Source of the DNA: Pirellulales bacterium
GTDB taxonomy: Bacteria > Planctomycetota > Planctomycetia > Pirellulales > JADZDJ01
DNA: 64,000 bases
NCBI GenBank assembly: GCA_963716135.1
Contig: OY970289.1
Span: 2,167,462 to 2,231,461, forward strand
Reading direction: 5' to 3'
Shown: positions 26,801 to 59,533 of the stretch, piece after piece
Layout of the letters: the number at the start of each line of letters is the position of its first letter
Numbering within the stretch: position 1 is the first letter of the stretch
Notes under the pieces: generated by a model
What the model saw: only the letters and a program-made list of their open reading frames with translations
Database searches by the model: none
What the model was told of the DNA's origin: nothing
Position numbers and translations under genes: made by a program

Positions 26801-27369
26801 AATTCGATTCCTACGCGACCCACCGCACGATCCAATTCGACGACATCGACCGCGAAGCCTCGGCCAATTACAACGGCTGGCAGGCCTATGTCTACGCCGA
26901 ACGCGGCGTCAGCTACGAATCGTGCGGCCGGCTGTTCCAGCCCTTCGTGGCGCTGCAGTATCTGTATTTGCGGCAGAACAGCTTCACGGAACATGGGGCC
27001 AATTCCATCGACCTGGCCTCTGGCGGCGCGAACACCAATTCGCTGCGCAGCTTGCTGGGCGCGCGATACCAGTGGGCTTGGATGCATCGCACCTGCCGCC
27101 GCTCGTTCCCCGAAGTTCACGCTTACTGGTTGCATGAATACATCGATTCGCATTCGCTGGTGGACGCCACCTTCTCGCCGGTCCCGGAAAACGGCGGCAC
27201 TCCGTTTATTGCCCATGGCCTCGATCTCGGCCGCGATTGGGCCGTCGCGGGCGCCAGCTTCACGTGGGAAATGCACGACTGCTGGAGCCTGTTCATCAAC
27301 GGCGACATCCAGACGAACAACCAGGCCACGCTGTATCTCGGCTCCGGCGGCTTGGGCCACGTGTGGTAG
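23814..27369 (+). CDS. classical (type Va) autotransporter with autotransporter-associated beta-strand repeats; frame broken once
   Basis: In ORF 23613-24362(+), the start at ATG 23814 gives MRRGFVRSVALCCGLIVSINQAVLPLAHA (signal peptide). ORF 24331-27369(+) carries many repeats of G.GTL.L.GANTYTGGTTV.AGTLQ. The C-terminal ~270 aa form the beta-barrel domain, with alternating aromatic and Gly strands ending ...LYLGSGGLGHVW. The frame break is at the A-run 24341-24343 (LIKDGAG / TLMMSGD). Confidence 0.85.
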
Positions 27370-38388: not shown

Positions 38389-38456
38389 CGTAGGCCAGAC
38401 TTAGAAGCAAGAAATCGAAATATTGCAAGAGCCGCAAGCGCATGAGGTGCTGTACT

Positions 38457-39522: not shown

Positions 39523-39781
39523 ATTGCCGCGCTGAATTTTACGACGCCAACTGTCGATTTCACGGGCGCGAAAACGCTTTGACCGGTCGGCAACGGCATG
39601 CGACCGGACATCGGACGATTCTTTGCCGCTCCTGGTCTCTTTGAGCTCCGGGAATTAGACTTATAATTGTGTGAGCCCATTTATTGATGGGGCGTGCCTC
39701 GAGCTGGAGCAGTCCAGGGCATGCCATCTGGCCAGGGCGATTTGGTTCCTTCGGGCTATTTAACGGTAGGATTCTGCACCA

Positions 39782-41287
39782 GTGAACCCGCGCCAAGTCG
39801 TCTTAAGCCGAGCGGAAGCTGCTGAATATCCGTCGGCGGCCCCCTTCCATCCCGACGAACAGTTTCCAGAGTATGGCTTCGGGAGCGGTGCGGTTGCGAC
39901 GAGCGAACGGAATGTCGCATATCGAGCAGTTCGTCAGGCATTGCAGTTGAGCGGATGCGACGGCGCGCGATTCGGGACCGCGGATTGGAACCCGCTGGGG
40001 GAATTCATCCGCCCGGGGCAGACTGTGTTGCTCAAGCCGAACCTGGTGAAGGAAACCCATCCGCGCGATCCCAACGGATGGCTGTATACCATCACGCACG
40101 GAAGCATCATTCGCGCCGTGGCGGATTACGCATTCAAAGCGCTTGCCGGGCGGGGCACGGTGGTCGTGGCCGACGCGCCGCAAACCGATTCGAGCTTCGA
40201 CGCCATGGTGCGGCTGCTGGAATTGAATCAGATTCAGGAATTCTATCGGCGGCAGAACTTGGACTTCGAGCTGACCGATCTGCGCAAGGAGCAGTGGACG
40301 TGTGAGGGAGAGGTGATCACCAATCGAAGGAAATTGGCAGGCGATCCGCGGGGATATGTGGCATTCGATTTGGCCGATCGGAGCGAGTTTCATCAGCATG
40401 GCGGCGCCGGGCGGTATTTCGGCGCCGATTACGACGACGGAGAAGTAAACCGGCATCACAGCGGCGGAAAGCACGAGTATCTGCTGGCCGGCACGGCAAT
40501 CAAATGCGATGTGTTCATCAATTTGCCCAAGCTAAAAACGCACAAGAAGGCGGGAATCACCGTCAATCTCAAAAACCTTGTGGGAGTGAACGGCGACAAG
40601 AATTGGCTGCCGCATCACACCGTGGGCACGCCCGTCAATGGAGGCGATCAATTTCCCGCTCCGACACTGAAGCGCAGCATCGAGCACCGCGCGGCGCAGA
40701 TGTTGCGTAAATTGGCGCTAGCAGCGCCCGGCGTGGGTCCTTGGCTCTTGCAGCGCGCTCGCAAAGCCGGCAAGCCGATATTTGGCGACACCTCGAAGGT
40801 GATTCGCAGCGGAAACTGGTTTGGCAACGACACCACGTGGCGGATGTGCTTGGACCTCAATAAATTGGTTCTGTATGGGAATTCGGACGGCACCCTGCGG
40901 CCGCCGGACGCCAAGCAACGCAAAGCTTATCTGTCGTTCGTCGACGGGATCATCAGCGGGCAAGGAGATGGCCCGATGGATCCCGATCCGTTGGAATCCA
41001 AAGTCGTGTTGTTCGGGCTTAGCCCGGCATCGGTCGATGCGGCGGCGGGGATTTTGATGGGATTCGATCTCAAGAAGATTCCGATTGTATGGAACGCATT
41101 TCAGGCGCGCGTTTTCTCGCTGGCAGAGTGGAGCTGGGATGAGATCCAGTGCGTGAGCAACTACGAGCCGTGGAACGTTTCGTTGGCGGAAATGAGCGGC
41201 TCGACGGGGCGATTGGAAGTGAATCCGCACTTTGGCTGGGCCGGTCATATTGAGGCACATCAACCTGCCAGCGCGACCGGGGGGTAG
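39782..41287 (+). CDS. DUF362-domain protein
   Basis: ORF 39782-41287(+), GTG start. ...IRPGQTVLLKPNLVKETHPRDPNGWLYTITHGSIIRAVADYAFKALAGRGTVVVADAPQTDSSF... is the pattern I associate with DUF362. This is similarity from memory, not a search result. Confidence 0.5.
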   Translation: MNPRQVVLSRAEAAEYPSAAPFHPDEQFPEYGFGSGAVATSERNVAYRAVRQALQLSGCDGARFGTADWNPLGEFIRPGQTVLLKPNLVKETHPRDPNGWLYTITHGSIIRAVADYAFKALAGRGTVVVADAPQTDSSFDAMVRLLELNQIQEFYRRQNLDFELTDLRKEQWTCEGEVITNRRKLAGDPRGYVAFDLADRSEFHQHGGAGRYFGADYDDGEVNRHHSGGKHEYLLAGTAIKCDVFINLPKLKTHKKAGITVNLKNLVGVNGDKNWLPHHTVGTPVNGGDQFPAPTLKRSIEHRAAQMLRKLALAAPGVGPWLLQRARKAGKPIFGDTSKVIRSGNWFGNDTTWRMCLDLNKLVLYGNSDGTLRPPDAKQRKAYLSFVDGIISGQGDGPMDPDPLESKVVLFGLSPASVDAAAGILMGFDLKKIPIVWNAFQARVFSLAEWSWDEIQCVSNYEPWNVSLAEMSGSTGRLEVNPHFGWAGHIEAHQPASATGG

Positions 41288-41295
41288 TTCCGCGA

Positions 41296-42698
41296 ATGTC
41301 GTCGCCGCTGTTCGAAAAACTGTACGCCAAGCTGCCGGTGGCCCTGCAGAATGCCGCCTGTTCGCTGGAAGGATGGCGGATTCAACGGAGCCGCTATTCG
41401 CCGGAATTCCATCAGTTGCTGGCGGAATATGAGGAGCGCAATGCGTATTCCGCGGCGCAAATGCAGGAATTCCGTGACGCGCGCGTTCGAGCCATGGTGC
41501 AGCACTGCGATCGAACCGTGCCCTACTATCGCCGCGTGTTCGCCGAATGTGGATTCCGCGCGGATCGCTGCCAAGGGCTGAACGATCTGGCGCAGCTTCC
41601 GGTGCTGACCAAGCAAATCGTGCAAGAGCACACCGGGGAATTGACGTCGGAGGCGGTGGACCGGAAGCAGTGCGTGATTACGCACACCAGCGGTACGACC
41701 GGCGCGGGGCTGCGCTTTCCGGTGACCAAGCGCGCCGCACAGGAATCGTGGGCGGTGTGGTGGCGTTACCGCAGGTGGCACGGTCTTGATCTGAACACCT
41801 GGTGCGGTTACTTCGGCGGGCGGACGTTGGTGCCGCCCGAGCAAATTCGGCCGCCGTTTTGGCGCGTGAATCGGCCCGGGCGACAGGTGATGTTCAGCGG
41901 ATATCATTTGTCGGCGGCGAATTTGCCGGCCTACATCGAAGAGCTGAATCGGCGGCGGCTGCCGTGGCTGCACGGGTATCCTTCGCTGTTGTCGCTGTTG
42001 GCGGGCCATTTGCTCGAGTCGGGGCGGCGGCTGGATTATCAGCCGCGGTGGGTCACCGTCGGCGCGGAGAACCTGTTGTCGCGGCAGGCGCAGTTGATCG
42101 AACAGGCATTTGGGGTGCGCTGCCTGCAGCACTACGGAATGACCGAAGCGGTGGCCAACATATCGCAATACACCGACGGCAATTTATACGTGGACGAGGA
42201 CTTCGCGGCGGTCGAGTTTTTGCCGAACGACGCGGGCAGTTTTTCCGTGGTCGGGACGAATCTGTCGAATCTTGCGTTTCCTCTGTTGCGTTACCAGGTT
42301 GGCGACGACGTGCAGTTGCCCGAAGTCGGGGCGGATTTTGGGGGCGCATTTCCAGGTCGGCGCGTGGCGAGCATCGACGGCCGCAAGGAAGATTACGTGG
42401 TGCTGCGCAATGGGGCTCGGGTGGGGCGGATGGATCACATCTTCAAAGACATGGTGACGGTGCGCGAGGCGCAGATCGTACAGAACGAGCCCGGGCGCTG
42501 ATCGTGCGGCTGGTGCGATCGCGGCAATACACGGATGCCGACGAGGTGCGCTTGCGGAGCGAATTTGCCAGCCGCCTGGGGCAGGATGCGCATCTGGAAT
42601 TTGAGTACGTCGAATCGATTCCGAAAACGGCTTCGGGAAAGGTGCGGTTTGTGGTGTCGACGCTGGAGGAGGGCCGGCTGGCGGGGACCACCGGGTGA
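41296..42698 (+). CDS. phenylacetate-CoA ligase family adenylating enzyme (CapK / F390-synthetase-like); frame broken once
   Basis: ORF 41296-42501(+) carries ...CVITHTSGTTGAGLRFPVT...LHGYPSLLSLLA...VTVGAENLL...HYGMTEAV... The C-terminus (LIVRLVRSRQYTDADEVRLRSEFASRLGQDAHLEFEYVESIPKTASGKVRFVV) lies in the frame of ORF 41802-42698(+). The break is at the G-run 42493-42495. Confidence 0.75.
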
Positions 42699-43101
42699 CG
42701 CCTTGTAACCCTTTACGTTGCATTGGGTTCAGAAGCGGCGGCTGGGCCGGGGGTGGTTTGACAAGGGGGGGAACAAGATTACACTGAAAGTTTGGGTCTC
42801 TCGGAATGGGAGCGTCGCTCCGGTCGCTGGGACCCGGCGCCATCGCAGTCTGCCCCCCGGGGTTCGCCACGGCGAGTTGCTAAATCCACCCTTGGGTAAG
42901 GGAGCAGATTTTGAAACCTCTTCCAGCGAAGAGGAAAGTACGATTCGCAAATGGTCGCTGGAAATGTGTATGGGTTGGCCGGAACGCGGCGAAATACGGC
43001 TAAAAATGTCGCGACCGTCAACCCACGGGAACGGAGTGCGCGCCGGCAGGGGGGACGAGAACATCCGCGATTTTCAAACGATTATCCAATAAGTTAACAG
43101 C

Positions 43102-44322
43102 ATGACATCCGCCACCAAGACGACTTCTTCTTCGCAATCGCCGGCCATCCTCGGCGGGCGACCCACGTTTGAGAAATTGCTGCCGATCGTTCGTCCCACC
43201 TTGCCAAAGTTCGAAGAACTGCGCGAGGAATTGGCCGAAGTGGTCACCAGCGGCATGGTCACCCGGGGGCGGCAGCTGCAAATGTTCGAGCAAGCGGCCG
43301 CGGAGCATCTGAAAGTGAAGCATGCCGTCGCGGTTTCGAGTTGCACGTGCGGGTTGATGTTGGTGTATCAGGGGCTGGGATTGAGGGGGGAGATCATCGC
43401 TCCCAGCTTCACGTTCATGGCCACGATCAGTTCGGCGGTATGGGCGGGACTGAAGCCGGTGCTGGTCGACGTCGATCGCCGAACTCACAACATCGATCCG
43501 GCAGCGATTGAAGCTGCGATTACGCCGGCCACGACGGGGATTGTGGCGGTGCATAACTTCGGCAATCCGGCCGATATCGGCGCGCTGGAGAAAATTGCCC
43601 GGCAGCACAAGTTGAAATTGGTGTTCGATGCGGCGCATGGATTTGGGGCGCGCTATCAAGGCATGCCGGTGGGCTCTCAAGGGGATGCGCAGGTTTACAG
43701 CCTCAGCCCCACGAAGCTGGTGGTTGCCGGCGAGGGGGGCATTGTGGCCACCAACTCCGATGAACTGGCGGAAAAGATCCGGCGCGGCCGCGAATACGGC
43801 ATGGGCAACGGCTACGACAGCTTGTTTGCCGGCATCAACTCGCGAATGAGCGAGTTTCACGCCTGCTTGGGGCGGCACAGCCTGGCGATGCTGGAGGGGC
43901 ACGTCGAGCGTCGGCAAGAAATTGTGGCGATGTACCGACAAGAATTGGGCCAGCTTCCAGGAATTGAATTTCAAGAAGTGTCGCCGGGCAACCGCGCGTC
44001 GTACAAGGATTTTTCGATCACGATCGATGCCGCGAAATTCGGGATGTCGCGCGATGAATTCGCGCAGGCGCTGGCCGCCGACAACATCGATTCGCGCAAA
44101 TACTACGATCCTCCGGTGCACCGCCAAACCGCGTATCGGCAATTTGCACCGCCGGAAGATCGGTTGCCCGTGACTAATTGGCTTTCGCAGGCGAGCTTGA
44201 GCCTGCCGGTTTGGTCGCACATGGGGGACGAAATCGTCCAGCAAGTCTGCCGTGCATGCAGGCGGATTCATGAGGCGGCCGGCGACGTTCGATCCCAGCT
44301 TGCGGCGGGAAAAAAGAAATAA
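43102..44322 (+). CDS. DegT/DnrJ/EryC1/StrS-family PLP-dependent sugar aminotransferase
   Basis: ORF 43102-44322(+), 406 aa. ...RPTLPKFEELREELAEVVTSGMVTRGRQLQMFEQAAAEHLKVKHAVAVSSCTCGL...HNFGNPADI...FDAAHGFG...YSLSPTKLVVAGEGG (Lys in the SxxK context). Confidence 0.85.
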   Translation: MTSATKTTSSSQSPAILGGRPTFEKLLPIVRPTLPKFEELREELAEVVTSGMVTRGRQLQMFEQAAAEHLKVKHAVAVSSCTCGLMLVYQGLGLRGEIIAPSFTFMATISSAVWAGLKPVLVDVDRRTHNIDPAAIEAAITPATTGIVAVHNFGNPADIGALEKIARQHKLKLVFDAAHGFGARYQGMPVGSQGDAQVYSLSPTKLVVAGEGGIVATNSDELAEKIRRGREYGMGNGYDSLFAGINSRMSEFHACLGRHSLAMLEGHVERRQEIVAMYRQELGQLPGIEFQEVSPGNRASYKDFSITIDAAKFGMSRDEFAQALAADNIDSRKYYDPPVHRQTAYRQFAPPEDRLPVTNWLSQASLSLPVWSHMGDEIVQQVCRACRRIHEAAGDVRSQLAAGKKK

Positions 44323-44516
44323 ACACCGATTTCCATCTTAATGTTCCCAATCAGCGGCGACGGCGGGTCCCAAATCCTTGAAAAAGCAAAACTTTCGGGG
44401 ATAATGGCGATTAGGCCGGCAGACTTCTACTTTTGGACCGTCCCGGTCCGGCGAATTCGCATCCACGGAGACGTGCAACTTTGAATCCAGCCCGTAATTA
44501 TCGGGTCACGCCCGGC

Positions 44517-46022
44517 ATGGCGCTGCGGATGTTTGCCGACGCGCTGATGTTGCAGTTGTCGCTGTTGTCGGCGCTGGTGCTGACGCTGTTCGGCGATTTG
44601 CTGTTCAATCCGGAGCTGCCGCACAAATCGCTTTCGGACATGTTTTGGTCGACGCTGAGCATGTACGGCAATTCGGCGTGGCCGTTGACGCTCATCGGCC
44701 TGGCAATCTTTCAGCTCAGCGGCTTTTACACGTATGGCCGCTTCTATCAGGGACGTTACAAGGCGCTGATCGTTTTTCAGGCGGTCTGCCAGAGCTATTT
44801 GATCTTCGGATTCGTCGTGTATTTTCTGCGCGGCGATTTGCCGCTGCCGCGCCGCACGTTGATTATGTCGTGGGTGTTCAGCGTGGTGCTGTTGGTCGGA
44901 TCGCGGTTATGGCAGGTGCTGTGGAAGAATTTGGTCGATCCGGAGCGGCCGCGCCTGACCGGCCAAAAAGGACGCGGAAAGAACGTGCTGGTGATCGGCG
45001 GGGCCGGTTACATCGGCTCGGCGCTGCTGCCTAAGCTGCTGGATTCCGGCTATCGAGTGCGCTTGCTCGATCTGCTGATGTACGATACGGATCCGATCAA
45101 CCAGGTGCTGACACATCCGAACCTGGAAGTGGTGCAGGGAGATTTCCGCCACGTCGGGAAGATCGTGGAAGTGATGCAGGGCATGGATGCGGTCGTGCAC
45201 CTGGGGGCGATCGTGGGGGATCCGGCTTGCGAGCTGGATCGCGAATTGACGACCGAAGTCAATCTTTCCGCCACGCGGATGGTGGCCGAAGTGGCCAAGC
45301 TATGCAGCGTGGAGCGATTTGTGTTCGCCAGCACGTGCTCGGTGTACGGGGCGTGCGACGAGATGCTGGACGAGCGGTCGCGCACCAAACCGATCTCGCA
45401 CTATGGCAACACCAAATTGGCGGCGGAGCGAGTGCTGTTGTCGATGAACGACAACCGTTTTTCGCCGACGATCCTGCGCTTCGCGACGATCTACGGCCTT
45501 TCCGGCCGGACGCGGTTCGATCTGGTGGTCAACTTGCTGACGGCCAAGGCGAAAATCGAGGGCAAGATAACAGTTCACGGCGGCAATCAATGGCGGCCGT
45601 TCGTGCACGTTGACGACGCCGCCTTGGCCATTGCTCGGGCGCTGGATGCCCCCGTGGAACTGGTGGGCAACGAAGTGTTCAACGTCGGCTCGGATGAGCA
45701 GAACTACACGATCAAGCAAGTGGGAGAAATCGTTCACCAACGCGTGCCCAGCGCGGAGTTGCTGGTTAGCGAGGGGGATACCGATCGGCGCAATTACCGC
45801 GTGAGTTTCTCCAAGATTCGGAATCAACTGGATTTCGCCCCGCAATGGACGGTGGAAAAGGGGATCGAGCAGGTGCTGGAAGCGATCGCTCGGGGCGACA
45901 TCGTCGACTACCGCGAAGCGAAGTACAGCAACGTGAAATTCCTCAGTGCCGAAGGGACGCAGCGGCTGAGCCGGGCGACGTGGGCACATAAATTGCTCGA
46001 CGAAATTACCACAGGCTCGTAG
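44517..46022 (+). CDS. membrane-anchored NAD-dependent sugar epimerase/dehydratase (SDR; N-terminal TM region as in CapD/PglF-type proteins)
   Basis: ORF 44433-46022(+), ATG at 44517. About 4 TM helices are followed by VLVIGGAGYIGSALLPKLLDSGYRVRLLDLL (GxxGxxG) and the catalytic YGNTKLAAE (YxxxK). Confidence 0.8.
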   Translation: MALRMFADALMLQLSLLSALVLTLFGDLLFNPELPHKSLSDMFWSTLSMYGNSAWPLTLIGLAIFQLSGFYTYGRFYQGRYKALIVFQAVCQSYLIFGFVVYFLRGDLPLPRRTLIMSWVFSVVLLVGSRLWQVLWKNLVDPERPRLTGQKGRGKNVLVIGGAGYIGSALLPKLLDSGYRVRLLDLLMYDTDPINQVLTHPNLEVVQGDFRHVGKIVEVMQGMDAVVHLGAIVGDPACELDRELTTEVNLSATRMVAEVAKLCSVERFVFASTCSVYGACDEMLDERSRTKPISHYGNTKLAAERVLLSMNDNRFSPTILRFATIYGLSGRTRFDLVVNLLTAKAKIEGKITVHGGNQWRPFVHVDDAALAIARALDAPVELVGNEVFNVGSDEQNYTIKQVGEIVHQRVPSAELLVSEGDTDRRNYRVSFSKIRNQLDFAPQWTVEKGIEQVLEAIARGDIVDYREAKYSNVKFLSAEGTQRLSRATWAHKLLDEITTGS

Positions 46023-46106
46023 TGGTTTGGACGGCCGAGTTCGTCTCATCTTCAAGCAGCGCAAGGTCAATGGGTTGGACTTGTTCGCGCACCGGCCGAT
46101 AGCAGA

Positions 46107-48320
46107 ATGAATCGAATCAAAACAGCGTATTTGATGCTGCGGCAGTTCGGGCCGCGGATTGTTCGTTTGCGAGCGGGCGTGTATCTGTCGAAAGCGCTGG
46201 GGCTGACGCGCCGGCGATTTCCGGCACGTTCGTGGGATTCGATTCGGCTGGAAGAAATTTGCAATTCGGGCACGCCGTGCGAGGCGGGGGCGTATGCCGA
46301 GTTCAAGCGGCGCAACGCTTCGGAGTTTCTTTTTCCGTTGGGCAAGCCGCCGCTTGTGCCGGAGGCCATTCGCAACGCTGGGCAACAGCGGCAGCCGGCA
46401 TTGGCGGAGCGATTGAAGCTAATCGAAGAAAACCGGAGCGTGTATTGCTTTCGCACCGTGGCGCCGGAGCGGGTCGATTGGAACAGCAATCCGCTGGACG
46501 GCATGCACATCGACGGGAGCCGGACGTGGTGCGAGATTCCTGATGTTGCGCCCGGCCAGAAAGACATTCGGCTGTTTTGGGATCCGGCGCAGGGCGCGTG
46601 GGCGATCGATTTGGCACGTGCAGGCGGCCACGGGAAGTCGGTGGATGCCGGTTCGTTGTACTGGCGATGGGTCGATTCGTGGATGGAGGCCTGTCCGCCG
46701 TGGCGAGGAGCGAATTGGAAATGTGGCCAGGAAGCCACCGTGCGGTTGATCGCGCTGGCCATTGGGTTTTGGGCCGTGGCCGACGATCCGGCCACGACCG
46801 ACGAGCGCTTTGTGCAATTTGCCCGGCTGGCGTGGGCCACGGGATATCGCATTGAGAAGCATTTCGAATACGCCCGGTCGCAGAAAAACAATCATGCACT
46901 TTCCGAAGCGTGCGGGCTGATGTTGGTGGGCCATTTGTTTCCGGAGTTTCGCGAGTCGGCGCGATGGTTCGAACGAGGCAGAGCGGTTTTCTGCGACGAG
47001 CTGGCGCGGCAAGTTTATGCCGACGGGAGCTATGTGCAACATTCGATGAATTATCATCGCGTGCTGCTGCAGATGGCGGTGCTGGCGGCACGGTTGGCCG
47101 AATGGCACGGCGAGCCGTTTGATGCGGCGACGATGGAGCGAATTGCGGCGGCCGAGGAATTCCTTTTTCAGATGCTCGATGAAACGACTGGGCGGGCGCC
47201 CTTGTACGGGAACAACGACGGGGCTTGGGTGTTGCCGTTGGACGAGTGTGATTTCACCGATTACCGCGGGGCGGTGCAGGCGGCGCATTACCTGGTTAGC
47301 GGCAAGCGGCGGTTTGCGGCCGGGGCGTGGGACGAGGATTTGCTGTGGCTGTTTGGACCGGAGTCGATGGCAGCGCCGCAGGAAGCCGTGGCCCGGCCAC
47401 AATCCAGCCAATTCAACGACGGGGGATACTACACGCTGCGCGGGGGCGAGAGCTGGGGGATGATTCGCTGCCACACGTTCCGCGATCGTCCGGCGCATTA
47501 CGATCAACTGCATTTCGATTTGTGGTATCGCGGACAGAACTTGCTTGGCGACTCAGGCACGTATCAATACAATCCGCCCGAAGGCAAGACGCTGGAAGAT
47601 TATTTCCAGTTGGCGCGGGGACATAACACCATTGAATTGGACGGCAGTTCGCCGGTGGAGCGGGTTTCGCGGTTTTTGTTCTTTCCCTGGCCGCGGGCCA
47701 AGATGCGGCATTTTGAAGCCGATGCCGGCGGCTATCGATACTTCGAGGGAGAAAGTTACGATTACGACGTGCGCCCGTGGCACGTGCTGCATCGGCGGGC
47801 GATTGTCGGGCTATCGGACGACATGTGGCTTGTCGTCGATGATCTGCTTGGCCACGGTCGGCACACCGCCACGCTGCGATGGCATTTGCCGGAGGCGCCG
47901 GTGCGGCTGGACGCGGAAGTCGCCACGATCGCGGTTGAGACGCCGGCGGGCGAATGTTTCCTGACGCTGTCGAGCGCGGACGCGCATTCCTGGAAACGGC
48001 TGGAAATCGTGCAAGGCTTTCGGTCGGATTATTACGGCCAGCGAACGGGGATTCCGCTGGTGGAGGCCGAAGTCGTCGGCGAATTGCCAATGCGACTGGT
48101 GACGCTGGTGGCGGCTGAGGCCCCGGCGATGTGGCGCCGGGAGGCGGCTGGCTCGCAACGCGAAAGTTACGAATTACGGCGTGGCGAGGCAGCCTGGAAA
48201 ATTGAGTTGGCGCCGCGGTTGCGCCAATCGCAGCGGGTTGTCGCAAGCATTCATTCGGGCGCGCCGAGCGGCAAACGGACCGATCGTGGTTCCGCCGCAG
48301 CGGCGTCGGCGATGCAATAA
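46107..48320 (+). CDS. heparinase II/III-family (alginate-lyase-like) protein
   Basis: ORF 46107-48320(+), 737 aa. ...QKNNHALSEACGLMLVGHLF...YADGSYVQHSMNYHRVLLQM...RPAHYDQLHFDLWYRGQNLLGDSGTYQYN... are typical heparinase II/III-like C-terminal motifs. Confidence 0.75.
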   Translation: MNRIKTAYLMLRQFGPRIVRLRAGVYLSKALGLTRRRFPARSWDSIRLEEICNSGTPCEAGAYAEFKRRNASEFLFPLGKPPLVPEAIRNAGQQRQPALAERLKLIEENRSVYCFRTVAPERVDWNSNPLDGMHIDGSRTWCEIPDVAPGQKDIRLFWDPAQGAWAIDLARAGGHGKSVDAGSLYWRWVDSWMEACPPWRGANWKCGQEATVRLIALAIGFWAVADDPATTDERFVQFARLAWATGYRIEKHFEYARSQKNNHALSEACGLMLVGHLFPEFRESARWFERGRAVFCDELARQVYADGSYVQHSMNYHRVLLQMAVLAARLAEWHGEPFDAATMERIAAAEEFLFQMLDETTGRAPLYGNNDGAWVLPLDECDFTDYRGAVQAAHYLVSGKRRFAAGAWDEDLLWLFGPESMAAPQEAVARPQSSQFNDGGYYTLRGGESWGMIRCHTFRDRPAHYDQLHFDLWYRGQNLLGDSGTYQYNPPEGKTLEDYFQLARGHNTIELDGSSPVERVSRFLFFPWPRAKMRHFEADAGGYRYFEGESYDYDVRPWHVLHRRAIVGLSDDMWLVVDDLLGHGRHTATLRWHLPEAPVRLDAEVATIAVETPAGECFLTLSSADAHSWKRLEIVQGFRSDYYGQRTGIPLVEAEVVGELPMRLVTLVAAEAPAMWRREAAGSQRESYELRRGEAAWKIELAPRLRQSQRVVASIHSGAPSGKRTDRGSAAAASAMQ

Positions 48321-48323
48321 CCG

Positions 48324-49637
48324 ATGTACGTATTGTTAATCCATCAAGTATTTGTCTCGCCGGAAGAGCCCGGCGGCACGCGCCACGTGGAACTTATGTC
48401 GCGGGTGGTGCAAGCGGGCCATCGCGCCACGATCGTGGCCAGCAATCTCAGCTACGTGACCGGCGAAGAGTTTGTGAGCGGACGCCATTGGGTGACGGAA
48501 CAGCACGTTCAAGGGATTCGAGTGCTGCGGTCGTACACGTATCCATCGCTGCACCGGAGCTTCACGTGGCGCGCCATTTCATTTTTGAGCTTCATGTTGA
48601 CGGCGGTGTGGGCCGGCTGGAAGGCGGGCAAAGTAGATTTGGTGATGGGCACCTCGCCGCCGCTGTTTCAGACGCTGTCGGCCTGGCTGATCGCCTGCAT
48701 GCGACGGCGACCATTCCTTCTGGAAATCCGCGACTTGTGGCCGGAATTCGGCATCGATTTGGGCATTCTCAAAAACCCGGTGCTGATTTGGATCGCGCGG
48801 CGGGTGGAAATGTTCATCTACCGGCGCGCCACGCACTTTTTGGTCAACTCGCCGGCTTATCGAGATTATCTGATCACCAAGGGCGTGCCGCGCGGGAAAA
48901 TCAGTTTCATCGCCAACGGCGTCGATCCCGCGGCATTTCGACCCGACGTGGATGGCCGAGCATTGCGGACAGAACATGGATTGGAAGAGAAATTCGTTGT
49001 CACTTACGCCGGAGCGCTGGGCATCAGCAACGACCTCGGCACGCTGTTGCACGCCGCCGCAGAATTGCGCGACGAGCACGATATTCATTTCCTGATTGTG
49101 GGCGACGGCAAAGAGCGCAAAAATCTGGATTCGCTTGTCGAACAGCTCAAGCTGTCCAACATCACGTTCACCGGCGCGCTGCCGAAGCGGCGGATGCCGG
49201 AAGTGCTGGCCGCGTCTGACGTGTGCGTGGCAATTTTAAAGAACATCAAGATGTTCACCACGACATACCCCAACAAGGTATTCGACTACATGGCGGCGGG
49301 CCGGCCCACGGTGCTGGCCATCGACGGGGTGATCCGGCAGGTCGTCGAAGCCGCGGAGGGAGGGATTTTTGTCCCGCCGGGGGATTCGCACGGGCTGGCC
49401 GCAGCCATTGGCCGACTGCATGACGATCGCGCGGCAGCACGGACCATGGGACAAAAAGCGCGGCGCTATGTCGAACAGCACTTTAATCGCGATCAACAAG
49501 CCGATCTTTTATGCCGTTTGGTGGAGCGACTGGCCGAGCATGGGCGTGCGGAGGCGGAAGACTCGTCGAACGATCCGCCGACGGCTGGGCGCGTCTCGAT
49601 CAATATCTTTGAGGAAAGTCGCCGCACTTCGGCCTAA
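48324..49637 (+). CDS. family-4 glycosyltransferase (WbuB-like)
   Basis: ORF 48324-49637(+). MYVLLIHQVFVSPEEPGGTRHVELMSRVVQAGHRATIV... and the C-terminal GT-B motif ...LAASDVCVAILKNIKMFTTTYPNKVFDYMAAGRPTVLAIDG.... Confidence 0.8.
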   Translation: MYVLLIHQVFVSPEEPGGTRHVELMSRVVQAGHRATIVASNLSYVTGEEFVSGRHWVTEQHVQGIRVLRSYTYPSLHRSFTWRAISFLSFMLTAVWAGWKAGKVDLVMGTSPPLFQTLSAWLIACMRRRPFLLEIRDLWPEFGIDLGILKNPVLIWIARRVEMFIYRRATHFLVNSPAYRDYLITKGVPRGKISFIANGVDPAAFRPDVDGRALRTEHGLEEKFVVTYAGALGISNDLGTLLHAAAELRDEHDIHFLIVGDGKERKNLDSLVEQLKLSNITFTGALPKRRMPEVLAASDVCVAILKNIKMFTTTYPNKVFDYMAAGRPTVLAIDGVIRQVVEAAEGGIFVPPGDSHGLAAAIGRLHDDRAAARTMGQKARRYVEQHFNRDQQADLLCRLVERLAEHGRAEAEDSSNDPPTAGRVSINIFEESRRTSA

Positions 49638-49656
49638 GCGGCGCACGTGTTGACCA

Positions 49657-50310
49657 ATGTATCGCCGTTTCGTTAAACGATTGCTCGATTTGGCGCTTGT
49701 GATTCCGTCGTTGATCATCCTTGCGCCGGTTATTGCGCTGACGGCGCTGGCGGTCCGCATGGCGATGGGGCGCGGCGTGCTGTATCGGCAAGAGCGCCCC
49801 GGGCTGCACGGCAAGCCGTTCATGTTGTACAAATTTCGCACGATGATCGACGCCTATGACGAACATGGGCAACCGCTTTCGGATGCGGAGCGATTGACGC
49901 CGTTTGGCCGATGGTTGCGAAAGTTGAGCTTGGACGAATTGCCGCAGTTGTGGAACGTGCTGCGTGGCGACATGAGCCTGGTTGGTCCGAGGCCGCTGGT
50001 GATCCGATATTTGCCGCGCTATACGCCGGAGCAATTCCGGCGGCATGATGTTCGGCCGGGCCTGACGGGCTGGACGCAAACCAACGGCCGCAATGCCCTG
50101 TCGTGGGACCAAAAATTTCAGTTCGACGTGTGGTACGTCGATCATGTCAGCCTTTGGCTCGACGTCAAAATCATCGCGCGCACGATCTGGCTAGTGCTGC
50201 GGCGAGCCAACGTGAGCGCGGAAGGGCATGCCACGATGCCGGAATTCATGGGATCCGCCGCGAAAAGCGGATCGTCGGAGCCGGCAAGCTCTTCGGCGCG
50301 AGTGCCTTGA
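49657..50310 (+). CDS. polyprenyl-phosphate sugar-phosphate transferase (small PglC/WbaP-C-terminal-type initiating 'sugar transferase')
   Basis: ORF 49657-50310(+). A re-entrant helix (RLLDLALVIPSLIILAPVIALTALAV) is followed by ...YRQERPGLHGKPFMLYKFRTM...DELPQLWNVLRGDMSLVGPRP.... Confidence 0.85.
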   Translation: MYRRFVKRLLDLALVIPSLIILAPVIALTALAVRMAMGRGVLYRQERPGLHGKPFMLYKFRTMIDAYDEHGQPLSDAERLTPFGRWLRKLSLDELPQLWNVLRGDMSLVGPRPLVIRYLPRYTPEQFRRHDVRPGLTGWTQTNGRNALSWDQKFQFDVWYVDHVSLWLDVKIIARTIWLVLRRANVSAEGHATMPEFMGSAAKSGSSEPASSSARVP

Positions 50311-50427
50311 GTGGGCGACTTTGGTCGTTAAGATTGAATCTGCAGCCACTTGCCGAAGTTTCGGCACAATGACCTTCGCCGCGCTGCCTGTTCCGAACGC
50401 ATTGCAACCTTACGAGTTCATTCCGGG

Positions 50428-51552
50428 ATGGCAAATCTCCAAAAACTGGTAGTGATGGGCGCGGGGGGTCTTGGGTCCGAAGTCGTGTGGGCGGCCGAAA
50501 ATCGGAACGCCAACTCGCCGACCTTCGAGATTCTCGGATATTGCGACGACGATTCGGCGAAAAAAGGGAACACATTCTTTGGGTACCCCGTGCTGGGCAA
50601 TCCGGAGGAAGTCGATGCGATGCTGCCGGAGAAACCGGGTTTCGTGTGCGCTATCGGCAACAACCGGCGGCGCGCGCAGATTGTGCAGCGTTTGATGGCG
50701 TTGAATTGGACGCCGGTGACGGTGGTTGAACCGTCGGCGATTATCGCCAGGGATGTCCGCATCGGATTGGGCACGTATATCGCCGCGGGCAGCACGTTGT
50801 CGCCCAATGCTCAGGTGGGGTCCCATGTAATTTTGAATCTGAATTGCATGATTACTCACGATAACCTCGTGGAAGACTACGTGCAGATTTGTCCAGGCGC
50901 AAGCTTATCGGGCTTCAGCGTAGTTAAGACTGGAGCTGTGGTGGGATCGAACGCCGTCGTGGCGCCATGCGTCAGCATCGGCGAATGGTCCACGCTGGGC
51001 GCGAACTCCTTTGCCGTGGAAAGTGTGCCCGACGGCGCCACTGCGATCGGTATTCCCGCGCGCGTGATGTTTCGCGCCGAACAAAACTTGATGGTCGCCG
51101 TGTTCCAGTTGCATCACATCGGTTACCTGGTCGCCGACATCCCGGGCGCGGCGGATGAATTCGCAGCACGATTCGGGTACGTCGTGGAAAGCCCGGTGAT
51201 CGCCGATCCGGTGCAAACGGCACACGTGCAACTTCTCCGACAGCCGGGGGCCGGGCATTGGCTGGAGTTGATTGCCCCGATTGATTCGGAGAGTAAACTT
51301 TCCAAGGCACTTGAGCGCGGCGGCGGATGGCACCATGTATGTTACGAGGTGCCAAACATGACACAGGCGTGCCAACAGCTGCGCGATCAAGGTTTGCTGC
51401 CGCTGGGCAGCATTCAACCGGCGAAGGCCTTTTCGGGTCGATCGTTGGCTTGGTTCATGGATCGTGCCAAGTTGCTGGTGGAGCTGGTCGAAAGCGGACC
51501 GGGTGATTTTTCGTTGGCCAACCTTGGGGACACAATTCGCACGCAACCATGA
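50428..51552 (+). CDS. NeuD/PglD-type hexapeptide sugar N/O-acyltransferase fused in frame to a VOC (glyoxalase / methylmalonyl-CoA-epimerase-like) domain
   Basis: ORF 50350-51552(+), ATG at 50428. MANLQKLVVMGAGGLGSEVVWAAE...ILGYCDDD... is the NeuD-type Rossmann-like N-terminal domain and is followed by left-handed beta-helix hexapeptide repeats. Then, with no stop, ...VFQLHHIGYLVADIPGAADEFAARFGY...HWLELIAPID...GGGWHHVCYEV... is the VOC fold with its metal-binding His/Glu pattern. Confidence 0.75.
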   Translation: MANLQKLVVMGAGGLGSEVVWAAENRNANSPTFEILGYCDDDSAKKGNTFFGYPVLGNPEEVDAMLPEKPGFVCAIGNNRRRAQIVQRLMALNWTPVTVVEPSAIIARDVRIGLGTYIAAGSTLSPNAQVGSHVILNLNCMITHDNLVEDYVQICPGASLSGFSVVKTGAVVGSNAVVAPCVSIGEWSTLGANSFAVESVPDGATAIGIPARVMFRAEQNLMVAVFQLHHIGYLVADIPGAADEFAARFGYVVESPVIADPVQTAHVQLLRQPGAGHWLELIAPIDSESKLSKALERGGGWHHVCYEVPNMTQACQQLRDQGLLPLGSIQPAKAFSGRSLAWFMDRAKLLVELVESGPGDFSLANLGDTIRTQP

Positions 51553-51794
51553 CGATTCGCCAGAGGCTGCGCAATGTTGTGCTGGGGGTGCTCGACGATC
51601 CGGAGATCGAGTACAGCGACACTCTTTCGCCTGCTAATTGCGCGGCCTGGGATTCGGTCGCCATGGTGCAGATCGCGCTGGCGGTTGAAGCAGAGTTCGA
51701 CGTGCGATTCACCACCAGCGAAATGGCCAAGATGAATTGCGTGGGCGACCTGGTAAAACTGCTGGAAGCGCACGGACTACGCGACGAAGGCTAA
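51549..51794 (+). CDS. acyl carrier protein
   Basis: ORF 51549-51794(+), 81 aa. Its start overlaps the upstream stop (ATGA). ...LSPANCAAWDSVAMVQIALAVEAEFDVRF... has the phosphopantetheine-attachment Ser in a DS motif at the start of helix II. Confidence 0.8.
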   Translation: MTIRQRLRNVVLGVLDDPEIEYSDTLSPANCAAWDSVAMVQIALAVEAEFDVRFTTSEMAKMNCVGDLVKLLEAHGLRDEG

Positions 51795-51810
51795 CCGTTA
51801 ACTCGTCCAG

Positions 51811-53953
51811 ATGAAGGAAGAAAAAGCGGATCTCGAGAGAATGCTTACCGTGCTGGACGCGACCGCAGGGCAATTGCCGGATGATCCTTTGCTGGTCGAG
51901 GATTGGATCGAGCGGCTCACCGCGAACGAACTTCTGGACACGCCGCAGTTAGCCAAGCGAATCGCGGCCGGCGGCGGTTGGGATGCATCCGCATTCGGTC
52001 GCCGCCTCATCGCGCGGATTCAAGAAAGCCGGCGCGAATGGAAAGATGCGATCGTCCGTTGGACGCGGGTGATCGACGCCGCCGCGGGAATCGATCATGA
52101 AGCGCTTTTGAGCCGCGCGGGCTCGGGCACAAGTTGGCGACAATGCCGGGGCATATGCCGACCTGCGGGCGGCCGTCGCGGAAAACGAAGATTTCGGGTT
52201 TCTCACCCGGGCGGCGAAGCTGTATCGGCGACTGCGGCCAAAAGCTGCGCCGCCATCGCTGCGGCAGGCGAAAGTGGCGCTGCTGTCGAGCAGCACGACC
52301 GCGTTGGCGGCGCCGCTTTTGGAATTGGCGTGCTTCCGCGACGGGATCGACGCCACGCTGTACGAGGCGCCGTTCGACAGTTATCGGCAGCAGATTCTCG
52401 ATCCGCAATCGGAGCTGTATCGCTTTGGGCCGGAGGTGGTGTTGATTGCCACGAACTGGCGCGACGCGAACTTGCCGGCGTTCTCGGACAGTCCGGAAGC
52501 CTCGGTCGCGGAGGCGACCCAGAGCTTCGAACAGCTTTGGATTACGCTGCTAAAGCGATTGCCGTGCCGCGTGATCCAGCACAGTTTCGATCAGCCGCTG
52601 GTGCGCTCGTTCGGGAATTTGAGTCACACACTGGCCGGCGGGCGCGCGGCGATGTTGCGAGATCTCAATCGGAGATTTGTGGCCAAGGCGCCGACGGCGG
52701 TCACCATTCTGGATTTGGAATACACGCAAGCCCGTTGCGGCGGGAAATGGTCGGACGACGCAATCTGGCACATCGCCAAGCAACATCCTGCCACCGCGGC
52801 GCTGCCGACGCTGGTGGATCAGCAAGTGGCGCTTGTGCGGGCGCAGTTGGGCCTGTCAAAAAAGGTGCTGGTGTTCGACCTGGATAACACGCTGTGGGGC
52901 GGCGTGATTGGCGAAGACGGTTTGGAGGGGATCGACATCGGTCCGCCATCCCCTGCCGGCGAGGCGTATCAAGCGCTGCAGCATTATGCCAAAGAGCTGA
53001 AAAGCCGCGGAGTGCTCTTGGCCGTGTGCTCGAAGAACAACGAGGCCGACGCGAAGCAGCCGTTTGAGAATCACGACGCGATGATTTTGCGGCTGGACGA
53101 TTTTGCACTATTTCTTGCCAACTGGGACGACAAGCCCGCGAACCTGCGCGCCGCTGCCGAGGCGCTGAGCCTGGGATTGGATAGCTTCGTGCTCTTGGAC
53201 GACAATCCGACTGAGCGGGCGTTTGTGCGGCGCGAGCTGCCGGAGGTCGCCGTGCCGGAGCTGGGAAACGATCCGGCGACTTTCGTGAAAGCGCTCGACC
53301 GGCGGATGTACTTCGAGGCGGTCACGCTTTCGGAGGAAGACCTCCAGCGCCATCAGCAGTATCAAGAAAATGCAGCACGGCATCAGATCCAACAACAGAG
53401 CGGGTCGCTCGATGAATTCCTGCGCGAGCTACGAATGGAGGCGGAATTGGGACCGGTGAACGAATCGGTCTTGGCGCGGGTGGTGCAGTTGTTGGGGAAA
53501 ACCAACCAGTTCAATCTGACGACGCGGCGTCATGGCGAAAGCGAAGTGCGCGAGATGATGCAATCGCCGCGCTGGTGGACGCAGTATTTCAAGCTGCGCG
53601 ATCGCTTTGGCGACAATGGCCTGATCGGGATGATGCTTGCCCGGGAAGCCGACGACACGGCCGGCACGTGGGAAATCGACACGTGGCTGATGAGCTGCCG
53701 GGTGATTGGCCGGAAGATGGAAGAATTGATGCTGGCGACGCTGGTGCAGGCGGCCCAGGAAAGGGGCATCCGGCGGGTGCGAGGGGTTTACATCCCGACT
53801 GCCAAAAACGCCATGGTCGCCGATCTCTACGCTCGGCTGGGCTTTTCGGCCGTCGGCGCCGCGGCAGGGTCGCAGATCTTCGAATTCGACCTGGCGACGC
53901 AGCCGGCGCCGGCGTGCGATTGCATCCAGGTTTTACGCCCCGCTGAGGCGTAA
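51811..53953 (+). CDS. FkbH-like HAD-IIIC phosphatase / acyl-loading protein with a C-terminal GNAT-like region; frame broken once
   Basis: The N-terminus is in ORF 51811-52887(+), real only to about 52125. The rest is in ORF 52274-53953(+), whose frame is open from 52112. ...KVLVFDLDNTLWGGVIGEDGLEGI...LLAVCSKNNEADAKQPF...FLANWDDKPANL...FVLLDDNP are the HAD-IIIC/FkbH motifs. Confidence 0.8.
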
Positions 53954-58779: not shown

Positions 58780-58798
58780 ACTTCCGGGGGCATTTCCC

Positions 58799-59533
58799 AT
58801 GATTCAAAATCAAAACTGGAAAAAACGTCTGTACGATGCTTACGTTTCCAGCGGGCAGGCGAGCGACCACATTTCCACGGAGCGGACGTTTCAAAGCCGA
58901 GCTCCGTCAGTTAAATCGGTCATCAGGAAACATATACCGGCTAATAAGAGCCTGCGCATTGTCGATCTCGGGTGCGGGCACGGGGCATTTCTATATTTTC
59001 TGAAGCAGGCCGGATATCAGGATGTGGCGGGCATCGACGTTTCAGCGGAGCAGGTGGAGTTGGCGCAACGGCTGGGCGTGCCGGAAGTAGAACACAACGA
59101 TATCAACAGGTATTTGGAAAGTGCGGAGTCGAGTTCGTTCAACGTGGTATTGCTAATCGACGTTCTGGAGCATCTGACTCGCTCGGAGCTATTTGATACT
59201 TTGGATGAGGTGTTTCGGATCTTGAAGCCCGGCGGCCGGTGCATCGCCCACGTGCCGAACGCGGAAGGGCTGTTTGGCATGCGTATTCGTTACGGCGACC
59301 TGACGCACGAGATGGCATTTGCTCCCAAAAGCGCGCAACAACTGTTTGCGACGATCGGGTTCGAGAAGGTGCAGTGTCACGAGGATCGGCCGGTACCGCA
59401 CAGTCTCAAGAGCCTGGTGCGACGAATTGTTTGGGACGTGTTTACGTTGGTGCCTCGTCTGCTGCTGACCGCGGAGACTGGGGAAACGCGGTTTGTCTTG
59501 TCGCAGAACATGCTGATCGTGGCGGATAAATGA
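58799..59533 (+). CDS. class I SAM-dependent methyltransferase
   Basis: ORF 58736-59533(+), ATG at 58799. Motif I is LRIVDLGCGHGAFLYFL, followed by ...VVLLIDVLEHL...ILKPGGRCIAHVPN. Confidence 0.8.
   Translation: MIQNQNWKKRLYDAYVSSGQASDHISTERTFQSRAPSVKSVIRKHIPANKSLRIVDLGCGHGAFLYFLKQAGYQDVAGIDVSAEQVELAQRLGVPEVEHNDINRYLESAESSSFNVVLLIDVLEHLTRSELFDTLDEVFRILKPGGRCIAHVPNAEGLFGMRIRYGDLTHEMAFAPKSAQQLFATIGFEKVQCHEDRPVPHSLKSLVRRIVWDVFTLVPRLLLTAETGETRFVLSQNMLIVADK

Follow-up and report, generated by a model that had tools for sequence, protein, structure and literature searches.

Which genes of an exopolysaccharide (EPS) locus would build an acyl group on an acyl carrier protein (ACP) and hand it to a sugar, and what would that group be? 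The question is raised by a 64-kb stretch of contig OY970289.1 from a Pirellulales bacterium; "the window" below means this whole stretch, and all coordinates refer to it. An initial annotation had grouped six genes in one co-directional operon into a single ACP-centred sugar-acylation module. These genes encode a DUF362 protein, a CapK-like ligase, a DegT-type aminotransferase, a hexapeptide acyltransferase fused to a VOC domain, an ACP and an FkbH-like protein. Our comparative analysis points to a smaller unit. The functional unit is best explained as a four-gene cassette of NeuD/PglD-like, VOC, ACP and FkbH-like genes at 50428–53953, which sits in a Wzx/Wzy-type, exosortase-associated EPS locus. 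We regard it as fairly probable that FkbH loads a glyceryl unit onto the ACP, from which the NeuD-like enzyme N-acylates an amino sugar. A glycerate-derived N-acyl group on the DegT amino sugar, reached by way of FkbH and the ACP, had already been suggested in the initial annotation and is still the best reading, given the synteny, the NeuD::ACP and ACP::FkbH fusions and the invariant Asp and Cys residues described below.

The predicted loader is the FkbH-like protein. From its N-terminus it consists of a helical extension, FkbH_N and the HAD-IIIC phosphatase domain, and it ends in a GNAT-like domain that contains an invariant Cys. The protein scores 303.2 bits against TIGR01686 (cut-off 146.65), covering model positions 2–320 of 323, and 56.9 bits against TIGR01681 (cut-off 35.75). 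PDB entry 3SLR is matched at E = 8e-58, and among its relatives a structure has been solved only for the structural-genomics protein BF1531, with coverage limited to the N-terminal and HAD parts. Homologues are 700–750 aa long, and one of them (P0002) is 82% identical to the window protein. In an alignment of 83 FkbH sequences from more than 10 phyla, the window sequence included, residues D202, D204, K254, D309, D310 and S474-C475-R476 are invariant, and the HAD motifs including T206 (DxDxT motif I, Lys, DD) are conserved in 81–83 of the sequences. The S474-C475-R476 motif falls within the region matched by TIGR01686. The presence of the catalytic Asp residues and of a candidate catalytic Cys on alignment, a check set beforehand, is hence borne out in all 83 sequences.

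OzmB and the Tmn16-type FkbH proteins are established glyceryl loaders, and by homology the window protein would follow the same chemistry. It would take D-1,3-bisphosphoglycerate and form an acyl-S-Cys intermediate on the invariant Cys475 of the C-terminal domain, the HAD DxDxT site (D202/D204) would strip the 3-phosphate, and the glyceryl group would pass to the phosphopantetheine arm of the adjacent ACP. By comparison with BafAIV, a protein of about 367 aa (PMC3679948), the window FkbH is longer by about 350 N-terminal residues, which correspond to FkbH_N and the helical extension. This extension, about 150 aa encoded by 51811–52270, lies ahead of FkbH_N in glycan-type FkbH proteins and has no Pfam match; in two homologues (P0053 and P0070) an ACP domain stands in its place.

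When genomes were scanned for FkbH, one per species, 80 loci were recovered, distributed over Verrucomicrobiota, Acidobacteriota, Planctomycetota, Nitrospirota, Actinomycetota, Pseudomonadota, Bacillota, Bacteroidota, Cyanobacteriota, Campylobacterota and other phyla. The most frequent neighbour is an ACP gene, found within 1 kb of FkbH in 60 of the 80 loci. An MBOAT gene lies within 4 kb in 26, a homologue of the window VOC within 2.5 kb in 15, a short-chain dehydrogenase/reductase (SDR) or ketoreductase (KR) gene within 4 kb in 14, a DegT gene within 7 kb in eight and a NeuD-like gene within 7 kb in five. Neither DUF362 nor CapK occurs within 10 kb of FkbH in any of them (0/80 for each). The second check set beforehand, conservation of the neighbourhood in relatives, thus gave a divided answer: it is positive for the NeuD/ACP/FkbH core and negative for DUF362 and CapK.

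The cassette appears in two forms. The short form, with the order NeuD, VOC, ACP, FkbH, occurs in the Pirellulales clade (window, L089 and L090) and is intact in L090. In the closest FkbH relatives (L001, L002, L005, L008, L092 and L099) the order is longer and reads PglC-type, NeuD-like, ACP, ketosynthase III (KSIII), KR, VOC, ACP, FkbH, DegT. The additional second ACP, FabH-like KSIII and KR between the NeuD-like gene and VOC were located at L001:5841–7944 and L002:6436–9151, and in L092, L099 and L100. KSIII is present in the long cassettes of L001, L002, L005, L007, L008 and L034, and a phmmer search of the window with the L001 KSIII as query found no homologue. In the 26 genomes with the MBOAT arrangement (within L011–L082), an SDR and an MBOAT membrane O-acyltransferase follow FkbH and ACP, for example at L079:11972–13537 and L029:5613–6383; these loci look like a Dlt-like export system for O-acylation of a surface polymer with an ACP-borne C3 acyl group. 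Other FkbH loci carry a hexapeptide transferase or a polysaccharide deacetylase.

The ACP of the window has the features of a dedicated carrier. It matches PP-binding (PF00550) with 24.4 bits (cut-off 20.8) and contains the Asp-Ser phosphopantetheinylation motif (WDSV). Its ATG overlaps the preceding stop codon as ATGA, an overlap that had been noted before, and its end lies 16 nt 5' of FkbH. Orthologues are found as the small gene directly 5' of FkbH in L001, L002, L089 and L090. Furthermore, the window ACP is 49% identical to the ACP domain of a NeuD::ACP fusion protein (P0260). A further NeuD::ACP fusion is P0286, and the same type of ACP is fused to FkbH in P0053 and P0070. Depending on the organism, then, the carrier is found in one polypeptide with the loader or with the N-acyltransferase, as a flow from FkbH through the ACP to NeuD predicts.

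The NeuD-like protein scores 195.3 bits against TIGR03570 (cut-off 160.8) and also matches PF17836 (PglD_N) and PF00132 (Hexapep). Its closest structures, VioB, PglB, WeeI, PerB and PglD, are all N-acetyltransferases. NeuD homologues from cassettes score 190–256 bits against the window protein, by comparison with 108–123 bits for PglD-like genes from loci that have the same backbone and no cassette. We propose the NeuD-like enzyme as the off-loader by which the sugar amino group receives the ACP-bound acyl group, and from gene context and fusions we infer that its donor is acyl-ACP rather than acyl-CoA. The enzyme could instead be an ordinary acetyl-CoA-dependent N-acetyltransferase that makes a PglD-like di-N-acetyl sugar, leaving VOC, ACP and FkbH to serve another acceptor, for example in O-acylation of a polymer or in a lipid. 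In its favour, the characterised TIGR03570 members are all known to use acyl-CoA, and the coupling of FkbH–ACP to an MBOAT O-acyltransferase in 26 of 80 genomes indicates that this donor unit is not tied to one transferase type. Such a split is nevertheless unlikely in view of the existing NeuD::ACP fusion proteins, the NeuD gene lying directly beside VOC-ACP-FkbH in all close relatives and the tighter grouping of the cassette-associated NeuD proteins; nor was any other acyltransferase (MBOAT, AT3 or another left-handed beta-helix protein) seen in the window locus.

The third partner of FkbH in the cassette is the VOC protein. It matches Glyoxalase_4 with 59.9 bits and reaches 41.1 bits against the methylmalonyl-CoA epimerase model TIGR03081 (cut-off 114.95), which places it outside the epimerase equivalog. 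The closest structures are the glyoxalase I of Clostridium acetobutylicum (E = 1e-17) and methylmalonyl-CoA epimerase (E = 2e-5). Residues H8, H9, Q42, H82 and E131 (VOC-domain numbering) are invariant in 14 cassette VOC proteins and align with the HHIG, HH.C and EL.E motifs of the glyoxalase I and epimerase structures. In a VOC-centred metagenome scan, for which an alignment of five VOC sequences served as query, 36 of the 41 loci with a length of 4 kb or more contained FkbH. Among the 23 loci with at least 3 kb on each side, 21 carried FkbH, and in 17 it lay within 1.5 kb. This co-occurrence indicates that the VOC subfamily is a specific partner of glycan-type FkbH, an association that the initial annotation had missed.

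Methylmalonyl-CoA epimerase and Ni/Co glyoxalase I act through enediolate intermediates of thioesters or hemithioacetals, and the product of glyoxalase I is a 2-hydroxyacyl thioester. Both have the single-domain VOC fold and the His/His/Glu metal-site positions in common with the window VOC, which is set apart by its identity of about 33% to the C. acetobutylicum glyoxalase I, its membership in an FkbH-adjacent subfamily and its presumed carrier-bound substrate. We hypothesize that the VOC protein, with its metal-dependent fold that stabilises thioester enediolates, acts on glyceryl-S-ACP as a tailoring enzyme for an ACP-bound 2-hydroxyacyl thioester, with epimerisation at C2 as the most likely reaction and dehydration to pyruvoyl-ACP as the main alternative.

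The dehydration would change the product. The flow from FkbH through the ACP to NeuD would be the same, while VOC would eliminate the C3 hydroxyl to give pyruvoyl-ACP, perhaps reduced further to lactoyl, or FkbH would load a different acyl phosphate. Bryostatin-type loading modules have been proposed to turn FkbH-loaded glyceryl-ACP into a lactate starter, and the window VOC has its closer match in glyoxalase I, ahead of methylmalonyl-CoA epimerase. Against an acyl group other than glyceroyl, no reductase lies beside the short cassette, the FkbH motifs are fully conserved with a family model built on glycerate-loading enzymes, and the dimethylglyceroyl group associated with Campylobacter jejuni keeps both oxygens (PMC3068675, PMC7099621). 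We consider such a product improbable and retain glyceroyl as the expected acyl group.

Several observations weigh against the proposed flow of a glyceryl group from FkbH to the sugar. To our knowledge, the PglD-type transferases characterised so far use acyl-CoA, and within the fold we know only of LpxA and LpxD as enzymes that use acyl-ACP. The equivalence of Cys475 to the catalytic Cys of OzmB and other characterised FkbH proteins comes from family-model coverage and invariance, not from direct alignment, and the searchable literature yielded no demonstration of a substrate for glycan-type FkbH proteins. In the closest syntenic genome (L022, a Pirellulales metagenome-assembled genome (MAG) whose FkbH is 71% identical), NeuD, ACP and FkbH (L022:8395–11693) occur without VOC. 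At least one lineage would therefore load and transfer the group without VOC, which may represent optional tailoring. Most close relatives also carry ACP-KSIII-KR, which might extend the glycerate chain or act in acyl transfer, so that their acyl group may exceed C3. A 4,6-dehydratase, a phosphopantetheinyl transferase and a flippase were not found in the window; for phosphopantetheinyl transferase and Wzx, which were likewise reported missing in the initial annotation, this refers to the open reading frames (ORFs) covered by a non-exhaustive scan. Finally, the FkbH and CapK genes are both frameshifted in the assembly, which is compatible with decay.

The frameshifts are part of a wider pattern. 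Three-frame translation revealed at least seven single- or double-base frame disruptions in about 15 kb (42–57 kb), located in G-runs and CG repeats, with one each in the CapK-like, FkbH-like and WecB genes and three in WecC. In the CapK-like gene, one nucleotide is deleted in the G-run at 42493–42498, where a 90.7%-identical relative used for alignment of the window (L083) reads GGGG and the window GGG. The frame of the FkbH-like gene changes at about 52119–52121, inside a CG repeat, and the 82%-identical P0002 spans this junction. If these changes were real, the CapK, FkbH, WecB and WecC genes would be decaying and the module non-functional. The number of disruptions would fit such a locus, yet each of them inserts or deletes one or two bases within a G-run or CG repeat, the L083 assembly, which derives from the same kind of data, shows 135 gap positions in 14 kb when aligned with the window, and the frames are otherwise intact and 58–82% identical to full-length orthologues. 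In addition, every gene of the block is intact in the independent assembly of a close relative (L090). Decay is accordingly most improbable, and we treat the frameshifts as probable sequencing or assembly errors. The window assembly is indel-rich and typical of an unpolished long-read MAG.

The same property of the assembly bears on the reported fusion of the acyltransferase with VOC. The NeuD and VOC genes can be read as one ORF (50350–51552), but in a collection of 5.8 billion proteins this architecture was matched only in the source genome, and all other matches to the NeuD::VOC query are 210–240 aa long and cover at most 59% of it. NeuD (221 or 228 aa) and VOC (150 aa) are encoded by separate genes in the two nearest relatives, spaced by 9 nt in L090 and by 69 nt in L089. 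At the junction in the window, a homologous tail ending in APNKT, followed by a TGA stop codon at 51091–51093, persists in the +1 frame, and the window is one base short at 51078 relative to L083. Because the fused form is unique to the source genome, split in relatives and offset by one frame from the ancestral stop, we discard it as a real new fusion; it is most likely a read-through caused by an indel, or at best very recent. Apparent domain fusions and other ORF oddities in indel-rich long-read assemblies thus need to be checked against relatives.

The two first genes of the proposed six-gene module, DUF362 and CapK, have a different neighbourhood. The DUF362 protein belongs to a subfamily of about 500 aa that is 57–73% identical across Planctomycetota, Acidobacteriota and other phyla. 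Its AlphaFold2 model has a predicted local distance difference test (pLDDT) score of 85.8, and its sole significant fold matches, at the domain level, are to the LarA family of nickel-pincer racemases, in agreement with the shared Pfam clan of DUF362 and LarA (PMC11770544). The CapK-like protein gives weak matches to AMP-binding, PaaK and DVU_1553 models, all below the equivalog cut-offs; its 58.9 bits against TIGR02155 (cut-off 646) mark it only as a divergent member of the PaaK/CapK branch. PaaK structures are matched at E = 8.5e-11, and TSGTTG and SGK motifs are present. The orthologues carry PF27533 (CapK_C), and the identity to the CapK_C protein of L085 is 58%. A CapK_C gene lies directly 3' of DUF362 in four of five independent DUF362 contexts (L085–L088). 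The genes that come after the pair include those for a heparinase II/III-like protein and/or a zinc-dependent alcohol dehydrogenase (Zn-ADH)::GFO oxidoreductase, GT4, Bac_transf, a plain PglD-like protein, DegT and a PglF-like dehydratase. Neither ACP nor FkbH is present in any of the five independent DUF362 contexts examined.

These comparisons bear directly on a module of six genes, in which the CapK-like ligase would adenylate an acid and load it on the ACP, DUF362 would assist, and FkbH, VOC and NeuD would act on the same intermediate. All six genes are co-directional inside 14 kb, the adenylation motifs of CapK are intact, and the DUF362 fold resembles LarA 2-hydroxy-acid racemases, glycerate being a 2-hydroxy acid. 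Examined from both sides, the grouping does not hold: the 80 FkbH loci lack DUF362 and CapK within 10 kb, and the five DUF362 contexts lack ACP and FkbH, the DUF362–CapK pair recurring in four independent EPS loci of that kind. L022 and the window are syntenic from DegT to FkbH, yet in L022 a GFO/IDH/MocA-like ORF, not CapK, lies 5' of DegT, and in the window itself a 400-bp gap separates CapK from DegT. Homologues of the tetronate-set proteins LuxC, LuxE and iron-dependent alcohol dehydrogenase (Fe-ADH) were not found in the cluster either. We thus consider a six-gene module very unlikely and exclude DUF362 and CapK from the ACP module, since they are missing from all FkbH loci and form an adjacent pair of their own in EPS loci devoid of ACP. 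The further idea that the ligase loads the ACP as in Vibrio cholerae O1 tetronate synthesis is not borne out, CapK being unlinked to ACP and FkbH in the comparative data.

The sequence comparisons instead suggest that DUF362 and CapK belong to a separate conserved module of the locus, which would include the heparinase II/III-like protein and the bi-domain oxidoreductase. The window can accordingly be described as a common DUF362–CapK backbone to which VOC-ACP-FkbH has been added beside the acyltransferase. Amidation or another modification of a uronic acid of the N-acetylmannosaminuronic acid (ManNAcA) type is only a guess at what DUF362 and the ligase do. The comparison separates from the cassette a second module that is highly conserved across phyla.

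The acceptor of the acyl group is presumably made by the genes 5' of the cassette. The best NCBIfam match of the DegT protein is the 4-aminotransferase DesI (E = 2e-91), and DesI (2po3) is also its best structural match, with WbpE ranking lower. DegT adjoins FkbH cassettes in L001, L005, L007, L008, L092 and L099. The membrane-anchored SDR has as its best structure 6vo6, described as a sugar-nucleotide epimerase/dehydratase; it occupies the position of PglF in related loci, and a homologue follows DegT in L087. The SDR presumably supplies the keto-sugar for DegT. A PglC-type gene lies directly 5' of the NeuD-like gene in the window and in L001, L008, L022, L089, L092 and L099. In the proposed pathway, SDR and DegT would produce a nucleotide-linked amino sugar, whose amino group, as synteny and fusions suggest, would receive the ACP-bound C3 acyl group through the NeuD/PglD-like enzyme. 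The PglC-type transferase and GT4 enzymes would then assemble the repeat unit on undecaprenyl phosphate, and the EPS would be expected to contain an N-glyceroyl (2,3-dihydroxypropanoyl) amino sugar.

Two other features of the product were considered. The presence of WecB, WecC, GFO and DegT raised the route to a 2,3-diamino-uronic acid (WbpA, B, E, D, I type) as a candidate for the acceptor. It was not adopted: the transferase is of the PglD/VioB type and not of the WbpD/WlbB type (3mqg matched at 9e-5 only), and DegT is nearer to DesI than to WbpE. A methylated acyl group, allowed for in the initial annotation, is not supported. The methyltransferase at 58736–59533 goes with the oxidoreductase, after which it is kept in the Pirellulales clade, and methyltransferases embedded in FkbH cassettes match its product at E = 1e-5 to 1e-7, a generic class-I level that gives no specific link.

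Among known systems, FkbH loading in polyketide pathways (FkbH/FkbJ, OzmB and Tmn16, for methoxymalonyl-ACP and tetronate) resembles the window in the HAD-IIIC and C-terminal Cys domains and in the small, dedicated ACP next to the loader. The window differs from these pathways in that it has no polyketide synthase, the off-loader is a sugar N-acyltransferase, and VOC is a partner without a counterpart there. The methoxymalonyl-ACP partners FkbK, FkbI and FkbG are absent from the + strand cluster, and FadE- and FadB-like genes lie on the other strand at 16–23 kb. In the glycerate cassette of tetronate pathways, a FabH-like condensing enzyme stands beside FkbH and ACP, and the window has none. 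V. cholerae O1, the analogy drawn in the initial annotation, resembles the proposal in the transfer step: in the N-tetronate of its perosamine (RfbK ACP, RfbL ligase, RfbM, RfbN and RfbO), an ACP-borne hydroxy-acyl group is put on a 4-amino sugar by a left-handed beta-helix transferase, as proposed for the window. Tetronate loading is catalysed there by an AMP-ligase and followed by LuxC/LuxE-like and Fe-ADH steps. In the window, by contrast, loading would proceed by FkbH from a glycolytic intermediate. PglD, PglB, VioB, PerB and WeeI, finally, have the same PglD_N and left-handed beta-helix domains as the window NeuD and the same pairing with DegT and PglC-type proteins. The characterised enzymes use acetyl-CoA as the donor, whereas the window enzyme, predicted to use acyl-ACP, belongs to a sub-group that is fused to ACP elsewhere.

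The closest parallel is found in the glycan locus cj1298–cj1304 of C. jejuni NCTC 11168, which clusters the same families (FkbH-domain protein, 'epimerase', ACP and PglD-like protein) and is likened to the window by annotation only. We take cj1298 to encode a PglD-type N-acyltransferase, cj1300 a methyltransferase, cj1303 FabH2 and cj1304 a second ACP, a set that fits the long cassette of L001, L005 and L099. The C. jejuni system concerns a nonulosonic acid on flagellin and includes KSIII, a second ACP and an embedded methyltransferase, whereas the window encodes an EPS repeat unit and lacks these three components. The initial annotation had overlooked this annotated counterpart in the flagellin glycosylation island, whose genes include cj1302 with an fkbH domain, cj1301 with the annotation 'epimerase' (PMC7099621) and cj1299 for an ACP (PMC6109747). 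Two C. jejuni strains without dimethylglyceric-acid pseudaminic acid have been described, one with cj1302 as a pseudogene only and the other without cj1301 (PMC7099621); in our reading of these data, loss of cj1301 or cj1302 correlates with the missing sugar form. The dimethylglyceric-acid form gives oxonium ions at m/z 391 and 390, as compared with 317 and 316 for the plain forms (PMC3068675). By our arithmetic, the difference of 74 Da corresponds to dimethylglyceroyl replacing acetyl, and these masses suggest that in C. jejuni an amino sugar is N-acylated with a glycerate-derived group. The only C. jejuni gene tied by experiment to the modification is cj1295 (PMC3068675). In the nearest Campylobacterota locus of our scan (L052, from a MAG), FkbH and ACP are the only components seen, and the contig ends right after the ACP.

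These comparisons identify the window cassette as a variant of an annotated and uncharacterised system of the C. jejuni type, distinct from both the polyketide pathways and the V. cholerae tetronate type. In the searchable literature, FkbH is linked to glycans only by the passing annotation of cj1302 and otherwise appears almost only in polyketide contexts. Judged from gene content, polyketide-style FkbH–ACP loading appears to have been recruited into glycan biosynthesis in more than 10 phyla. In Tannerella forsythia, the genetic basis of the N-glyceroyl group of Pse5Am7Gra was called a major challenge and unknown (PMC5378307). We tentatively suggest, as a bolder step than the core mechanism, that (PglD-like)-VOC-ACP-FkbH may be the missing genetic basis of N-glyceroyl and O-methyl-glyceroyl groups on bacterial amino sugars, such as those of C. 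jejuni dimethylglyceroyl-pseudaminic acid and Tannerella Pse5Am7Gra. VOC might then be a new epimerase for carrier-bound 2-hydroxyacyl thioesters, and FkbH–ACP a C3 donor that many phyla use to draw from glycolysis for surface glycans, N-linked via PglD-like enzymes and O-linked across the membrane via MBOAT in a Dlt-like manner. Antigenicity, phage recognition and immune evasion are influenced by uncommon N-acyl substituents of amino sugars, and the comparative data define a minimal set of four genes proposed to load, carry, tailor (VOC) and transfer such a group. The interest of the locus lies in this conserved NeuD-VOC-ACP-FkbH cassette and its wide distribution rather than in the six-gene grouping, the fusion or the methylation.

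Table 1. Coordinates of the cassette and of the surrounding genes in the window, with the matches on which the assignments are based.
Feature	Coordinates	Strand	Matches and remarks
NeuD/PglB/VioB-type left-handed beta-helix sugar N-acyltransferase	50428..51093	+	TIGR03570, PglD_N, Hexapep
VOC (glyoxalase/epimerase-fold) protein	51100..51552	+	Glyoxalase_4; own 150-aa gene in nearest relatives
Dedicated ACP	51549..51794	+	81 aa; PP-binding; serine motif WDSVAMV
FkbH-like loader (predicted)	51811..53953	+	about 713 aa, reconstructed; TIGR01686, FkbH_N, PDB 3SLR
DUF362 protein	39782..41287	+	501 aa; PF04015, 86 bits
PaaK/CapK-like adenylate-forming enzyme	41296..42698	+	467 aa, reconstructed
DegT-family pyridoxal phosphate-dependent sugar aminotransferase	43102..44322	+	PF01041, 353 bits
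Membrane-anchored SDR (GalE/epimerase-dehydrogenase type)	44433..46022	+	Epimerase, E = 5.7e-46; Polysacc_synt_2, 1.5e-13
Heparinase II/III-like protein	46107..48320	+	Hepar_II_III_N and Hepar_II_III_C; after DUF362–CapK in L086, L087, L088
Small PglC-type polyprenyl-phosphate sugar-phosphate transferase (initiating)	49657..50310	+	Bac_transf, 215 bits
Bi-domain Zn-ADH::GFO/IDH/MocA oxidoreductase	56623..58779	+	domain matches
Class I S-adenosylmethionine-dependent methyltransferase	58736..59533	+	domain matches; orthologues in L090, L022, L089

The surrounding region is an EPS locus of planctomycete type, with a PEP-CTERM protein, DUF1559, EpsI/DUF3485, a Wzc-like kinase, exosortase and Wza, and the closest genomic relatives are Pirellulales MAGs. 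Every gene from 37267 to past 62641 is carried on the + strand. Between the six genes grouped in the initial annotation lie those for the membrane-anchored SDR, the heparinase II/III-like protein, a GT4 enzyme and the PglC-type phosphoglycosyl transferase. The FkbH gene is followed on its 3' side, in this order, by WecB, WecC, the bi-domain oxidoreductase, a methyltransferase, two glycosyltransferase-like genes and a second methyltransferase, so that the oxidoreductase and the two methyltransferases are located 3' of the module as claimed. The bi-domain oxidoreductase also occurs after CapK in L085, in L088, and after WecB and WecC in L090. All six grouped genes are present on the + strand, and their coordinates and families hold. 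Their placement in one operon cannot be shown, because gaps of about 400 bp occur at 39359–39782 and 42698–43102 and scans of the region for promoters and terminators gave no signal beyond the shuffled background.

Four further features of the window were noted beside these genes. Between Wza and DUF362, positions 38442–39359 contain a low-complexity ORF that is rich in Pro, Ser and Glu and has a signal-like N-terminus; it is the stretch with the most indel variation relative to L083 (28 gap positions). On the - strand beside the EPS region, 16227–23009 carries a full beta-oxidation set consisting of an acyl-CoA dehydrogenase, an AMP-forming acyl-CoA ligase, a thiolase and a FadB-type hydratase/dehydrogenase; we saw no sign that this set supplies the ACP module. 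An autotransporter with PATR repeats is encoded at 24331–27369, flanked by the beta-oxidation genes on one side and the PEP-CTERM/exosortase genes on the other. At the other end, a multi-pass membrane protein that is readable only with frame switches (62700–64000) runs off the window and may be a Wzy-like polymerase with more frameshifts.

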